DNA of 64,000 nucleotides. Source: Patescibacteria group bacterium (GTDB lineage Bacteria; Patescibacteriota; UBA1384; XYA2-FULL-43-10). Under the pieces are notes generated by a model. The model searched no databases, was not told where the DNA came from, and saw only the letters and a program-made list of their open reading frames with translations. The stretch's first letter is position 1; each line of letters starts with the position of its first letter. Shown piece by piece: positions 699 to 60,757 of this stretch. The stretch is taken from the NCBI GenBank assembly GCA_041674405.1, contig JBAYVT010000001.1:181032-245031 (forward strand). Direction: 5' to 3'. Made by a program: the position numbers and the translations under genes.

Positions 699-726
699 TT
701 GACATTATGTAAAGTATACTTTACAT
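699..726 (+). promoter_or_regulatory. TTGACA -35-like box (699-704) directly followed by a perfect 20-bp palindrome ATGTAAAGTATACTTTACAT (707-726) upstream of dnaK; candidate repressor operator
   Basis: Palindrome read directly from the sequence. The same 20-mer, with one central base different, occurs at 60723-60742 upstream of the HTH-Hsp20 gene. Confidence 0.55.
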
Positions 727-2952: not shown

Positions 2953-3645
2953 ATGTTGGATATCTTCAAAAGGCCAATTACCGTCATTATCATTGTTGGG
3001 GCGATTGTGATCGCCCTTATCTGGTCATATGTTGACAAGAGAATTCAATCCAATAAGGAAGCTGCGGAAGCTAAAAAAATTACCGATGCCGCTCAGATCA
3101 TTACCAATCTTACCAATATAGATCCCAAAGATTACGATGAATTAGTGAAGGCTGAATATCAGAAAGCAGTTACGAATGCGACAGCAGCTGATCCAAATAA
3201 TGCATTTTCGGCGTTGGTGGTAGAATTGCCAGGCGACCTTGCCTTAAACTCGGGAAATGACAGATTTGTTTTTACTTCTCCGGACAATGCTGCAAATAAC
3301 TGGACCATCACATTTTCTGAGCTTACCGGCAACTTTATTCGGGCAATAATTCCCAAAAGCGATTATTTAGGGGAACTGAAGCCGGTAAATACAAACCTAT
3401 GGAAATTCCAATATGTGACGGCAATTCAAATTGCCGAACAAAATGGCGGAAAGACTTTTCGTGAAAACAATTCTTTGACCGGAGTTACACTTACCCTGAA
3501 GCACGGAGACCCGAATAATTGGCTGGCATGGACAGTCGAATACAACAGCAAGGATAATAAATTTGTAAAACAGGTTGATGCCAATTCCGGAAAAACGATT
3601 GATTCAATTTCAACTACCGGAGATCAAGCATCTTCTGTCCAGTAA
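2953..3645 (+). CDS. membrane-anchored hypothetical protein; C-terminal region resembles a PepSY domain
   Basis: N-terminal hydrophobic helix. C-terminal WTVEYNSKDNKFVKQVDANSGKTI fits the PepSY pattern. The gene sits between dnaK and the J-protein gene. Confidence 0.5.
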   Translation: MLDIFKRPITVIIIVGAIVIALIWSYVDKRIQSNKEAAEAKKITDAAQIITNLTNIDPKDYDELVKAEYQKAVTNATAADPNNAFSALVVELPGDLALNSGNDRFVFTSPDNAANNWTITFSELTGNFIRAIIPKSDYLGELKPVNTNLWKFQYVTAIQIAEQNGGKTFRENNSLTGVTLTLKHGDPNNWLAWTVEYNSKDNKFVKQVDANSGKTIDSISTTGDQASSVQ

Positions 3646-3743
3646 TTCAAATCTCAAATTTCAAATCTCAAAAATAAGGAATTAAATATTTAAATATTTG
3701 AGATGAAATTTTGACTTTTGAAATTTAAGTTTTGAGATATATC

Positions 3744-4406
3744 ATGTCCAAGGATTACTATAAAATTCTAGGAGTGGACAAGAGGGCTTCCGCCGACGAA
3801 ATCAAAAAAACATATCGGAAGCTTGCTTTGGAATGTCATCCGGATCGAGGCGGAGGAGACAAAGCGGAAGAGAAATTCAAAGAACTGAACGAAGCTTATC
3901 AAGTTCTTTCGGATTCACAGAAACGGGCACAATACGATCAATTTGGCTCAACATTCGCAGGCGGACAGGGCAGCGGTGGATTTGGCGGTTTCGATTTTGG
4001 CGGATTCCAAGGGCAAGATTTCGGTGGATTCGGTCCCGAAGGGGCCCACTTTGGGGGCTTTGGCGGCGGCGGGCTTGGCGATATATTTGATGATTTCTTT
4101 GGTGCTGCTTTTTCATCCGTGTCTGCTGAGATTGAGATTGGCCCCGCGCAAGCTGTTCTCGGTGAAAAAATTTCGATCAATGTTAGTGGTGAAAATATTG
4201 AACTAAATATCCCACCTGGCATTCAGGATGGAACTACTTTTCGGTTTCTTGGCAAGGGTCGCGCATACAACAAGTCGGGTAAGAAAGGCGATCTCAATGT
4301 GATAGTGCACATAAAAATGCCTCAAAGAATCACACCGGAGCAAAAGGAGCTATGGGAGAAGCTTAAGGAAGCCGAATCAAAGAAGAAATCTTGGTGGCAA
4401 CGCTAG
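3744..4406 (+). CDS. J-domain co-chaperone (DnaJ/CbpA-like; J domain plus G/F-rich region, no Cys-rich zinc-finger domain)
   Basis: DYYKILGV...HPD J-domain motif followed by a Gly/Phe-rich stretch. ATG at 3744 preferred over the TTG at 3732 used by the ORF track. Confidence 0.85.
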
Positions 4407-4887: not shown

Positions 4888-6291
4888 TTATAATTTGTCA
4901 ATTTTAGAACTGATTGAAGCAAAATAATCTTTGATATTTTGATAATTTAAGTTTTCTTTGACCTCATTCAGCAACACCCAAACAGGAATTTCGTCGGTTT
5001 CTTTTTCTCCAAGATCCACTTTCTCTGATCTAAAAAGAAACATTTTACAGGTGATTCCTTTCGGGTTCATTTTATTTACATACTCGAAATCGGGCAGATC
5101 AGTTCCATCAGACACTACAACCCCGGTTTCTTCAAATATCTCTCTGATAGCCGCTTTCTTTTCATCTTCTCCAGGCTCTAAGTGGCCTTTTGGAAATGAA
5201 AACTCATTGTTGTGACGCGGCCGCTGGATCATCAGAACATATTTTTTGCCTTGGCGCTCCAACACAACTATTCCGCCTGATTTTAGAGTGTGCCCTGCTG
5301 GATTTTTTACTTTATTTGGATGATTCAGCTCCGAAAGAATAACTTTTATTAATTCTTCTATACCTTTATTAGCTGCGGCAGAAATCGGAATAGCAACCAC
5401 GCTAATTTCTTCAAATTGCCCGATTTTTGACTTGATGTTTTCTGAAGATTCAACATCGGTTTTATTTAATACAACAATTTCATTTTTGCTGCTTAAGTTT
5501 TTTGAAAATTCCTCAAGCTCCTTGCGAATTGTTTTGTAATCACGAATCACATCGTCACTCATCGAATCAATCACATGCACAAGCAAATTGGTGCGCTCGA
5601 TATGTTTTAGGAATCGATCGCCAAGCCCACGTCCAGCCGATGCTCCTTCAATCAAGCCAGGGATGTCGGCGACAATAACATTGCGATCTATACCCTTAAT
5701 AACCCCTAGATTCGGCGTAAGCGTAGTAAAGGGATAGTCGGCAACTTTCGGCCTAGCATTGGAAATAACCGATAAGAGAGTTGACTTACCAGCATTTGGA
5801 AGGCCGATGAGCCCTACATCTGCGATCATTTTAAGTTCCAGGTTTAAACGTTTTGATTCTCCGAATAAGCCCTTTTTTGACCATTTTGGAGCTTGTTTGA
5901 TCGAGGTGGCAAAATGTACATTTCCCCAGCCGCCTTGCCCCCCACTTACTGCGACGTATGAACCGGCATCACCCGCTAGATCAGCTACCAATTTATCATC
6001 TTCAAATATTTGTGTGCCTAGGGGCACATTCAATTTAAGATCATCGCCGTTTTTGCCGTGCATTTTTTTACCCATTCCATTTTGGCCATTTTCCGCACTG
6101 AATTTTCTGATGCGGTTAAAATAAGACAGATCCGATGTGTGTGAATCGGCAGAGATGATGACACTGCCACCATTTCCTCCATCTCCCCCATCGGGCCCAC
6201 CTTTTGGAACATATTTTTCATGGCGAAAAGAGGCAGACCCATCTCCGCCATTGCCGGCTTTCACATAAATTTTCGCTTCATCAAAAAACAT
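4888..6291 (-). CDS. obg: GTPase Obg with a C-terminal Nudix hydrolase domain in place of the usual OCT/TGS tail
   Basis: N-terminus MFFDEAKIYVKAGNGGDG (Obg fold), G1 GLPNAGKST and other G-motifs. The last ~130 aa carry a perfect Nudix box GHLEPGEDEKKAAIREIFEETGV. ATG at 6291 preferred over the GTG at 6324. Confidence 0.9.
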   Translation of the reverse strand: MFFDEAKIYVKAGNGGDGSASFRHEKYVPKGGPDGGDGGNGGSVIISADSHTSDLSYFNRIRKFSAENGQNGMGKKMHGKNGDDLKLNVPLGTQIFEDDKLVADLAGDAGSYVAVSGGQGGWGNVHFATSIKQAPKWSKKGLFGESKRLNLELKMIADVGLIGLPNAGKSTLLSVISNARPKVADYPFTTLTPNLGVIKGIDRNVIVADIPGLIEGASAGRGLGDRFLKHIERTNLLVHVIDSMSDDVIRDYKTIRKELEEFSKNLSSKNEIVVLNKTDVESSENIKSKIGQFEEISVVAIPISAAANKGIEELIKVILSELNHPNKVKNPAGHTLKSGGIVVLERQGKKYVLMIQRPRHNNEFSFPKGHLEPGEDEKKAAIREIFEETGVVVSDGTDLPDFEYVNKMNPKGITCKMFLFRSEKVDLGEKETDEIPVWVLLNEVKENLNYQNIKDYFASISSKIDKL

Positions 6292-6297
6292 GACTTT

Positions 6298-6401
6298 CAC
6301 AGAATGGTTATCACAGAATTTCACAGAATTGATTGCAGCATGGATTCATGAGATTCACAGAAATGATATTTTTCTGTGTCTTTCTGTGTGATTTTTCTGT
6401 G
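6298..6401. repeat. array of seven CACAGAA heptamers (four direct, then three inverted as TTCTGTG) in the obg upstream region
   Basis: Copies read from the sequence at 6298, 6312, 6322, 6356 (forward) and 6372, 6382, 6395 (reverse). Confidence 0.6.
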
Positions 6402-59790: not shown

Positions 59791-60663
59791 TTACTTTTTG
59801 GCTTTTTTCTTGACCGCAATTTTGGCAGCTTGTTTCGGTGCGACTTTCGGTACAGTAATAGTCAAAATTCCGTTGTCCATCTCAGCTTCGGCCTTTTCTG
59901 ATTTAACTTCGGATGGCAGTGTGAAGCTTCTAGTAAATGATCCAGTATACATTTCTTTGTGATAAAATCCCTCGTCTTTTTCTTCCTTTTCCTCTTTTTT
60001 CTCACCAGAAATTGTCATTATGTTATCGGCAACTTCAACAGTGACATCTTCCTCGGCAACTCCCGGAAGTTCGGCTTTGACTATGACAGCGTCTTTGGTT
60101 TCTTTTACATTGATTTTCGGCATTCCGCCAGCCTTGGCTGGGGTGACAACGCTTTCCTCAAAAAGACGATCCATTGCATCACGGAGAGTAACCATTTCTC
60201 CGAAAGGGCGCCACGGCCCAATTTCTCTTGGCATAGAATTCTCCTTTACCCCGAGCCTGTCGAGGGGTTTACCCACCTCATCGAGCCTGTCGAGGGGTTT
60301 ACCCACCTCATCGAGCCTGTCGAGGGGTTTACCCACCTCATCGAGCCTGCCGAGGAGTCTCTCGTCCTCAATTTGTCCGAGTTGCCCAGCAGTTGCGGGG
60401 TTATGATTAATAATTTTTATTGGTGAATTATTTTCAAACATTTGATTAATTTCTTTTTCAAAATCAAATATTTCCTCAAATGCAGAATTGAAAAAATTGC
60501 ACATCGATACAACAAGGGGTAGTGATGGCATATATTTCCCCTGCTCAAGAGCGATCACAGACTGCCGGGAAATACCCAGAGCTTCGGCCAGTTCCTCTTG
60601 TGAAAGATCGTGTTGGCGACGAAGTTCGCGCAATCTGTTTTGAATGTTTGGTTCTTCTTTCAT
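59791..60663 (-). CDS. fusion protein: N-terminal XRE/Cro-type HTH DNA-binding domain plus repeat linker plus C-terminal small heat-shock protein (alpha-crystallin/Hsp20) domain
   Basis: HTH: LRELRRQHDLSQEELAEALGISRQSVIALEQGK. Linker: LDEVGKPLDR x3.5. ACD: INVKETKDAVIVKAELPGV...GILTITVPK. Confidence 0.85.
   Translation of the reverse strand: MKEEPNIQNRLRELRRQHDLSQEELAEALGISRQSVIALEQGKYMPSLPLVVSMCNFFNSAFEEIFDFEKEINQMFENNSPIKIINHNPATAGQLGQIEDERLLGRLDEVGKPLDRLDEVGKPLDRLDEVGKPLDRLGVKENSMPREIGPWRPFGEMVTLRDAMDRLFEESVVTPAKAGGMPKINVKETKDAVIVKAELPGVAEEDVTVEVADNIMTISGEKKEEKEEKDEGFYHKEMYTGSFTRSFTLPSEVKSEKAEAEMDNGILTITVPKVAPKQAAKIAVKKKAKK
60251..60356. repeat. perfect in-frame 30-bp tandem repeat (3.5 copies; TCGAGCCTGTCGAGGGGTTTACCCACCTCA) inside the HTH-Hsp20 gene
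   Basis: Copies at 60251, 60281, 60311 and a partial one at 60341. Copies 2 and 3 are identical. Confidence 0.9.
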
Positions 60664-60720: not shown

Positions 60721-60757
60721 TGATGTAAAGTTTACTTTACATCATGATCTTTGTCAA
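60721..60757 (-). promoter_or_regulatory. promoter TTGACA-17-TAAACT (minus strand) whose -10 is embedded in a 24-bp palindrome TGATGTAAAGTTTACTTTACATCA (60721-60744); candidate autoregulatory operator of the HTH-Hsp20 gene
   Basis: Seen in the sequence. The core 20-mer equals the dnaK-upstream palindrome (707-726) except for one central base. Confidence 0.6.

Follow-up and report, generated by a model that had tools for sequence, protein, structure and literature searches.

A palindrome common to the promoters of dnaK and of an XRE-HTH/small heat-shock protein fusion gene points to an undescribed heat-shock circuit in Patescibacteria

[quoted passage not shown] The question raised by this locus is whether the palindrome is an operator through which the fusion protein would control dnaK together with its own gene, and how such control would relate to the known heat-shock systems. 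The recurrence of the arrangement across many Patescibacteria points to an undescribed heat-shock circuit with a putative repressor that contains its own chaperone domain. Patescibacteria (Candidate Phyla Radiation) account for a large share of bacterial diversity and have very few regulators, and to our knowledge their gene regulation is almost unstudied. In the literature searched, which covered subscription journals thinly and included a review on bacterial sHSPs, no description of heat-shock control in Patescibacteria was found, and neither this operator nor a regulator of the HTH-sHSP type was described.

The palindrome and its conservation at two gene families

The features of the two promoters and of the genes that they precede are as follows.

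699-704, + strand: -35 hexamer TTGACA of dnaK, from a promoter consensus scan
707-726, no strand assigned: operator 1, ATGTAAAGTATACTTTACAT, two 8-bp half-sites and a 4-bp variable center
722-727, + strand: predicted -10 TACATT of dnaK, the last 5 nt of the palindrome and a conserved T
951-2849, + strand: dnaK (Hsp70), 632 aa (PF00012, 879.6 bits, E = 1.1e-264)
59791-60663, - strand: XRE-HTH/sHSP fusion gene, 290 aa, proposed repressor
60723-60742, no strand assigned: operator 2, ATGTAAAGTTTACTTTACAT, in the fusion gene's own promoter
60734-60729, - strand: predicted -10 TAAACT of the fusion gene, at the center of the palindrome
60757-60752, - strand: -35 hexamer TTGACA of the fusion gene, from a promoter consensus scan

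The original prediction of a perfect palindrome 2 nt past TTGACA, with a second copy changed in one central base and overlapping the -10 of the fusion gene, was confirmed on each of these points. Positions 695-734 read ...ggcaTTGACAttATGTAAAGTATACTTTACATttataaag..., with the two bases TT between the hexamer and a perfect 10+10 inverted repeat of 20 bp. The second copy differs from the first only at position 10, in the center, and the predicted TAAACT lies inside it. The symmetry of this copy reaches 11-nt arms (TGATGTAAAGT/ACTTTACATCA). With up to three mismatches allowed, the 20-mer was found at exactly these two sites in the 64 kb, which hold about 58 genes, compared to a mean of 0.03 matches per window in 100 dinucleotide-preserving shuffles, none of which reached two matches. 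The ten largest other ORFs were annotated as housekeeping genes, including those for IF-2, GyrA, GyrB, ThrRS, SHMT, and a ThyX-like protein, and no operator site was present before any of the ten.

Conservation at dnaK was analyzed on contigs fetched by protein identity, whose DnaK homologues are 82-88% identical to that of the window. All eight loci with upstream DNA (L201-L204 and L209-L212) carry TTGACA-N2-ATGTAAAG-N4-CTTTACAT without a mismatch at any of the 16 defined positions, and the end of the site lies 35-230 nt from the dnaK start codon. An identical arrangement precedes dnaK in a Saccharibacteria locus, L150, obtained from an independent pattern scan. The operator was present in the TTGACA register at 11 of 11 patescibacterial dnaK promoters, those named being the window, L150, and the eight loci above; across these dnaK operators the outer 16 positions are invariant and the central four variable.

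For the fusion gene, 80 metagenome loci were fetched by protein similarity only, of which about 42 encode full-length fusions. The same pattern with up to two mismatches was found upstream in 38 distinct promoters and begins 17-131 nt ahead of the approximate start codon; the exceptions are L005, L040, and L043, with little or no upstream DNA, and L036, in which the motif has diverged to four mismatches. The register seen at dnaK, TTGACA-N2-palindrome (class I), occurs in 31/38 fusion promoters with the consensus TTGACAaAATGTAAAGt.t.CTTTACAtTt, and a T directly follows the palindrome in almost every class I promoter. Class II, TTGACA-N9/10-palindrome, comprises L010, L011, L014, L019, L024, and the window, and a TTGACA-N3 spacing was seen at L037. 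The fusion promoters likewise show essentially no variation at the 16 outer positions and free variation at the central four. No extra operator sites were found in the flanks of 40 fusion-gene loci. The claim that a single operator is common to dnaK and the HTH-Hsp20 gene therefore holds for both sets of promoters. The DnaK protein P0202 and the operator-bearing fusion gene of L029, each recorded on a contig of 200,483 bp, probably represent a second genome with both sites.

The palindrome had also been taken as the mark of a heat-shock regulon, a reading that the comparison of genomes supports well for dnaK and the regulator gene and not for a wider set of genes. In 531,515 nt of homology-retrieved loci, 45 sites with up to one mismatch were counted, and per-locus scans placed sites solely at fusion-gene or dnaK promoters. 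The operator was absent from grpE in all six loci that contain this gene upstream of dnaK (L201-L204, L211, and L212) and from clpC in all four homology-retrieved Patescibacteria loci (L205-L208), including the clpC of L205, which shares an 867,751-bp contig with the site-bearing dnaK locus L204. The only clpC-type gene with a site came from the pattern scan, in one Saccharibacteria MAG (L191), where it encodes an 837-aa Clp-type ATPase whose close homologues are named ClpC by JGI; the operator also precedes the fusion gene on another contig of this MAG (L197). As grpE has no site and clpC is mostly without one, the conserved core appears small, namely, dnaK with its downstream genes and the regulator.

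The fusion protein and the relatives of its HTH

Three elements were distinguished within the fusion gene.

60472-60633, - strand: HTH of the fusion (HTH_3, residues 11-64)
60252-60355, - strand: 30-nt tandem repeat in 3.5 copies, encoding LDEVGKPLDR, in the inter-domain linker
59815-60108, - strand: alpha-crystallin domain of the fusion (HSP20, residues 186-283)

Both domains scored well above the Pfam gathering cut-offs, the HTH as XRE/Cro-C1 type (HTH_3, PF01381, 53.3 bits versus 23) and the sHSP part as HSP20 (PF00011, 82.5 bits versus 20.8). Residues 8-70 match, over the full length of those proteins, the 65-aa "PbsX family" regulator 9k3w (E = 1.9e-12) and the 66-aa cytolysin repressor CylR2 (1utx, E = 5.5e-9), and residues 181-279 match pea Hsp18.1 (5ds2, E = 4.9e-21) and wheat Hsp16.9 (1gme, E = 1.1e-20). 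The HTH is thus like that of CylR2 from Enterococcus faecalis and of the 65-70 aa PbsX/Xre family regulators, which are single-domain proteins, whereas in the fusion the HTH is extended by a variable linker and a complete sHSP. The latter occupies the C-terminal 145 aa with an N-terminal arm, an alpha-crystallin domain, and a C-terminal motif. In a 33-member alignment its landmarks are the PWRPF...SLRDAMDRLFE arm before the domain, GVLTITVPK within it, and the C-terminal oligomerization motif I/V-x-I/V, present as K(I/V)x(I/V)K and as KIAVK in the window protein. The linker varies in both length and sequence in this alignment, and the 93%-identical homologue P0002 has a single copy of the LDEVGKPLDR repeat. 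The AlphaFold2 model built from the 33 sequences had a mean pLDDT of 54.5 and a pTM of 0.33, with a disordered linker and both domains moderately confident, and a model of this quality lends no structural support to a coupling of the two domains.

The window protein is identical to a database entry annotated as an Hsp20 family protein. A word-indexed protein search with the fusion returned 1,582 proteins at E <= 0.001, the best 120 of which all contain HTH and HSP20 Pfam domains; the source names of the homologues were Patescibacteria, Berkelbacteria, or plain "bacterium." The regulator family amounts to more than 1,500 clusters at 90% identity. When 1.84 billion representatives at 50% identity were searched exhaustively, 43 proteins reached E <= 1e-30; the majority are 190-260 aa long and matched in two stretches (HTH and sHSP), which suggests one large tight cluster and a few dozen divergent ones. 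NCBIfam gave a specific name to neither the fusion nor the small HTH, all matches being under the cut-off.

The suggestion that the operator might be lineage specific was not upheld. A bare-pattern scan with one genome per species yielded at least 120 stretches, mostly outside Patescibacteria, and at 31 of the 120 listed, the palindrome directly adjoins a stand-alone gene for an XRE protein of 62-90 aa. The encoded proteins are 35-52% identical to the HTH of the fusion, and the recognition-helix motif (S/T)RQ(S/T)(I/V), in its fuller form (S/T)RQ(S/T)(I/V)...E...Y.PS, is common to all. The hosts include Bacillota (Neobacillus, Mesobacillus, Alkaliphilus, Oscillospiraceae, Roseburia, and others), Chloroflexia (Chloroflexota), Spirochaetota, an actinobacterium, Sphingomonas, Paceibacterota, and Saccharibacteria. 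Within Patescibacteria, stand-alone paralogues were found at L100, L189, L194, and other Paceibacteria loci. Fusion genes appeared among the listed matches at L113 and L197, a membrane protein with the HTH as its C-terminal part at the Asgard-archaeal (Promethearchaeota) locus L086, and one further HTH gene, cut off by the contig end, at L085. In Paceibacteria, the stand-alone HTH genes adjoin methionine-rich membrane proteins and not heat-shock genes, and at L145 the palindrome precedes a pyridine-nucleotide-disulfide oxidoreductase, with no adjacent HTH homologue detected there. As to whether the motif also lies at non-heat-shock loci, the outcome was divided: it does so beside stand-alone XRE genes elsewhere, whereas only fusion and dnaK promoters carried it in the 531 kb of homology-retrieved DNA.

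The presence of the palindrome beside homologous HTH genes across phyla strongly supports binding of this DNA by this type of HTH, and an operator of this HTH family very probably sits at both promoters in the window. Judged from this distribution, the palindrome appears to be the site recognized by a CylR2-like subfamily that is widespread, and the fusion would have inherited it. The DNA specificity would be old and widespread, and what is new and specific to Patescibacteria would be that the HTH was joined to a complete sHSP and that dnaK acquired the site. Such a history shows how a widespread small XRE module of fixed DNA specificity can be recruited to a new regulon via domain fusion.

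Because the same palindrome lies beside stand-alone paralogues, one of them could in principle bind the dnaK site or compete for it. A small XRE protein encoded elsewhere would then be the regulator, and the fusion would serve chiefly as a chaperone that has this DNA specificity only in common with the regulator or no longer possesses it. Stand-alone homologues that share the recognition helix do lie beside the palindrome in many phyla, Paceibacteria and Saccharibacteria (L100, L189, and L194) among them, and the window shows 64 kb out of the roughly 250 kb of its contig, so a paralogue may sit outside it; no other homologue of the fusion's HTH was found inside. This explanation is nevertheless unlikely, as the palindrome lies on the fusion's own promoter at 38 distinct loci, in none of which a stand-alone HTH gene is adjacent. 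The recognition region is moreover nearly invariant in 33 fusions (G30, R33, Q34, S35, I37, L39, E40, P46, and S47), with R33, Q34, S35, and I37 strictly so, which argues for selection for DNA binding. From these observations we infer that the fusion rather than a paralogue is the binder, and the fusion protein is the likely repressor.

Predicted promoter occlusion, the proposed circuit, and known heat-shock systems

Two promoter layouts were recognized. In one, TTGACA-17-TACATT, the operator lies in the spacer and the -10; in the other, TTGACA-17-TAWACT, the center of the palindrome is the -10. The dnaK promoter (699-727, + strand) follows the first, its operator occupying the spacer and the predicted -10. 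The promoter of the fusion gene in the window, TTGACA-17-TAAACT (60757-60729, - strand), follows the second, the palindrome lying 7 bp further downstream than at dnaK with its center on the predicted -10. Each has 10/12 consensus matches; the -10 assignments are consensus matches, and the A/T-rich TtTAat block after the palindrome is an alternative -10 position. Since the operator lies on the core promoter in both classes, repression by occlusion and negative autoregulation would be expected, and the position of the site in either layout has the geometry of a repressor operator.

The circuit would operate as follows. A dimer of the XRE-HTH/sHSP fusion would bind ATGTAAAG-N4-CTTTACAT through its CylR2-like HTH and, covering the spacer and the -10 of sigma-70-type promoters, would block the unit of dnaK, the gene that follows it, and the dnaJ-like gene, and likewise shut off its own gene. 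Proteotoxic stress would lift the repression via the covalently attached sHSP. In the simplest form, titration, unfolded clients would sequester the fusion into sHSP-client assemblies and off the DNA; alternatively, heat would alter its oligomeric state. Newly made DnaK would clear the clients and free the repressor, and the loop would close. Substrates bound by sHSPs are known to be cleared by DnaK. The sHSPs themselves are ATP-independent holdases for unfolding proteins, and their oligomeric state shifts with temperature (PMC8155344).

For the circuit taken whole, with the fusion as a dimeric repressor on both promoters that is relieved by stress via its sHSP, we estimate a probability of roughly 0.7. 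The assignment of the sensor role to the sHSP domain is a close call at just under even odds. The broader idea that Patescibacteria control dnaK by a one-polypeptide sensor-effector, with a complete sHSP as the signal-receiving domain, is put forward tentatively.

Activation or dual regulation by MerR-like reshaping of the promoter, with the TtTAat block as the -10, is quite improbable. The class I operator does lie between TTGACA and the A/T-rich TtTAat, which gives it a superficially MerR-like appearance, and MerR-type promoters hold their operator in an over-long spacer of 19-20 bp. The spacer here would, however, be 22-23 bp, longer than in MerR promoters, whereas a 17-bp spacer to TACATT or TAWACT gives 10/12 matches at both window promoters. 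In addition, the center of the class II palindrome is the -10, which would be occluded upon binding, and the HTH of the fusion is XRE/CylR2-like and not of the MerR type. It is barely credible that the block is a special sigma-factor promoter element, as its tight link to TTGACA might suggest, or an RNA or terminator hairpin, as which a terminator scan flagged copy 2 (weak hairpin and T-rich tail, + strand), because a perfect dyad with a free 4-bp center is typical of dimeric HTH proteins, a palindrome that moves 7-8 bp relative to the -35 between classes is a dimeric transcription-factor site incompatible with a fixed sigma element, and in phyla unrelated to one another the palindrome likewise stands beside homologous HTH genes. 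The terminator reading of copy 2 was rejected for its weak A/T-rich stem with 3 G-C pairs and the absence of an upstream + strand gene end.

The reading as an occluding, autoregulated repressor was compared to the known systems. In HrcA-CIRCE, HspR-HAIR, and CtsR, a repressor acts on a conserved repeat at chaperone core promoters, dnaK included; these repressors are usually autoregulated, and chaperone feedback is exerted by GroEL on HrcA and by DnaK on HspR. The proposed circuit would share the repressor on chaperone promoters, the autoregulation, and the chaperone feedback. It differs in the regulator, an XRE/Cro-C1 HTH compared to the HrcA, MerR, or CtsR family, in having its own operator sequence, in a conserved regulon seen here of only dnaK and the regulator gene, and in carrying the chaperone within the regulator polypeptide, whereas the co-repressor is separate in those systems.

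Consistent with the original prediction that the element is neither CIRCE nor HAIR, scans of the window gave 0 matches to CIRCE (TTAGCACTC-N9-GAGTGCTAA) at up to three mismatches and 0 to HAIR (CTTGAGT-N7-ACTCAAG) at up to two. The CtsR box (GGTCAAA-NAN-GGTCAAA) had one 2-mismatch match in the window, at 5876-5892 within an Obg-NUDIX ORF (4888-6324), which is not convincing, as 24/100 shuffles were as good. No hrcA was seen ahead of grpE or dnaK in L201-L204, L211, and L212. As these boxes are absent, the regulator belongs to a different family, and no hrcA lies beside grpE or dnaK, the circuit, as reconstructed from sequence, would work like the three systems yet belong to none of them.

RheA of Streptomyces albus, the repressor of hsp18, is said to sense temperature directly. 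It resembles the fusion in repressing an sHSP gene and differs in being encoded by a separate gene, in belonging to another family, and in lacking a chaperone domain. In the known systems, one molecule serves as the chaperone and another as the transcription factor. If the proposed circuit is correct, the natural fusion would reduce the chaperone-titration model to a minimal form, in which the unfolded-protein load or the oligomerization of the sHSP is read directly at the promoter without a separate co-repressor; this bears on how cells measure unfolded protein and would offer a compact part for engineering stress-responsive promoters. With a defined 20-bp operator, a regulator family, and dnaK as the target, the circuit is directly testable. 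A conceptual precedent for an sHSP as a titratable sensor is IbpA of Escherichia coli, described as a titratable aggregation sensor controlling its own translation and that of sigma-32 (PMC10410725 and PMC10474464) and, there and in bioRxiv 10.1101/2020.04.20.050740, as an sHSP that represses heat-shock expression and is thought to be titrated off by aggregates. IbpA acts on mRNA, at the ibpA and rpoH 5' UTRs, without a dedicated nucleic-acid-binding domain, whereas the fusion, with an HTH of the classical DNA-binding kind and an operator at the promoter, would act on transcription.

The dnaK unit and its leader hairpin

Downstream of operator 1, three further features belong to the region of dnaK.

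734-840, + strand: structured dnaK 5' leader, a long hairpin with the apical loop CCCCUCC at 779-785
2953-3645, + strand: gene without a Pfam family, with an N-terminal membrane anchor, between dnaK and the dnaJ-like gene
3732-4406, + strand: short DnaJ-like co-chaperone with a J domain and part of the C-terminal domain

The gene at 2953-3645 is probably a member of an operon with dnaK. A syntenic gene of 201-218 aa, also without a Pfam match, is present in L201, L202, L204, and L209-L213, and L203 is arranged differently. The DnaJ-like protein matched PF00226 (E = 3.3e-28) and PF01556 (E = 6e-13), and the true start of its gene is probably the ATG at 3746.

The leader hairpin starts at the predicted start of the dnaK transcript, and the fold of the leader (733-960) reached -97.8 kcal/mol with z = -9.2. 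No Rfam match was obtained for positions 600-1000 at E <= 1. The hairpin was also found in five other dnaK leaders (L201, L202, L209, L210, and L212), whose stems differ in sequence yet stay paired, with CCCCUCC unchanged as the apical loop of each. Compensatory double changes were seen at 15/24 pairs when five of the sequences (window, L201, L202, L209, and L210) were aligned. Across the window and the Patescibacteria loci, a search for this loop within a hairpin recovered the six dnaK leaders and two other places, the latter probably fortuitous. The hairpin may add a second, RNA-level layer of regulation to dnaK. The CCCCUCC loop resembles the anti-Shine-Dalgarno sequence and could pair with the dnaK ribosome-binding site AGGAG; on the hypothesis drawn from this small sample of leaders, the hairpin might exert control of a translational or thermometer-like kind, or act as a 5' stabilizer.

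RNA leader and neighboring genes of dnaK

The dnaK region of the window contains the following features.

734-840: 5'-terminal hairpin of the dnaK leader; loop CCCCUCC at 779-785
2953-3645: conserved gene without a family, between dnaK and the dnaJ-like gene
3732-4406: DnaJ homologue of only about 220 aa
4888-6324, minus strand: Obg GTPase-NUDIX fusion of 478 aa, with the NUDIX domain C-terminal

The leader hairpin is very stable and conserved in related dnaK loci, namely, L201 (~3850-3925), L202 (~3795-3870), L209 (~1780-1860), L210 (~1815-1890), and L212 (~1410-1455), and its stems covary. The CCCCUCC loop is invariant and resembles an anti-Shine-Dalgarno sequence. No family for this hairpin was found in Rfam. 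Its function may be control at the RNA level or stabilization of the 5' end.

Syntenic counterparts of the gene at 2953-3645 were present in L201, L202, L204, and L209 to L213, always between dnaK and the dnaJ-like gene. Their products and that of the window gene are about 200 to 230 aa long with a membrane anchor at the N-terminus, and no family was assigned to the window product by Pfam or NCBIfam. The DnaJ homologue comprises a J domain and part of the C-terminal domain; no zinc-finger domain was reported in it by Pfam, and its NCBIfam DnaJ scores were far under the cut-offs. The Obg-NUDIX fusion also occurs in L209, and L202 carries a plain Obg with a separate MazG gene adjoining.

Linker of the XRE-HTH/sHSP fusion protein

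60252-60355, minus-strand coding: 30-nt tandem repeat, 3.5 copies, 98% matches

The repeat encodes LDEVGKPLDR three times within the linker joining the HTH and sHSP domains. Since a 93%-identical homologue (P0002) has one copy compared to 3.5 in the window, linker length is polymorphic among close relatives.

Palindromes at other loci

In the genome-collection scan with the bare palindrome pattern, the palindrome adjoined genes for methionine-rich membrane or secreted proteins in Paceibacteria and other MAGs (L125, L127, L131, L174, L182, L188, and L149), with a 64-79 aa ORF on its opposite side in L125, L127, L131, L174, and L188; in L145, of the same set, it adjoined a pyridine-nucleotide-disulfide oxidoreductase gene. 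A (T)ATAAAGT...CCACAG block often precedes the palindrome in this set. The stand-alone single-domain XRE paralogues may control a metal or redox regulon here.

In the Streptococcus mitis group (L091, L128, L132, L137, L147, L157, L162, L173, L180, L186, L187, and L199), a 252-aa ORF, ParB-like on visual inspection, is preceded at a distance of 28 nt by the conserved element TTGACATCT-ATGTAAAG-N4-CTTTACAT; a search for HTH homologues next to the element at these loci gave none. A longer palindrome, CAAAATGTAAAGTCGACTTTACATTTTG, was found in Pseudomonadota MAGs and Polaromonas (L082, L088, L112, L114 with two copies, L120, L130, L133, and L185), with several copies per genome, and looks like a dispersed repeat or a multi-site operator of another factor.

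In a Promethearchaeota MAG (L086), the palindrome adjoins an ORF ending near 3950 for a 277-aa membrane protein, whose C-terminal HTH belongs to the same subfamily as that of the fusion protein. This protein, from an Asgard archaeon bin, is a further fusion of this DNA-binding module.
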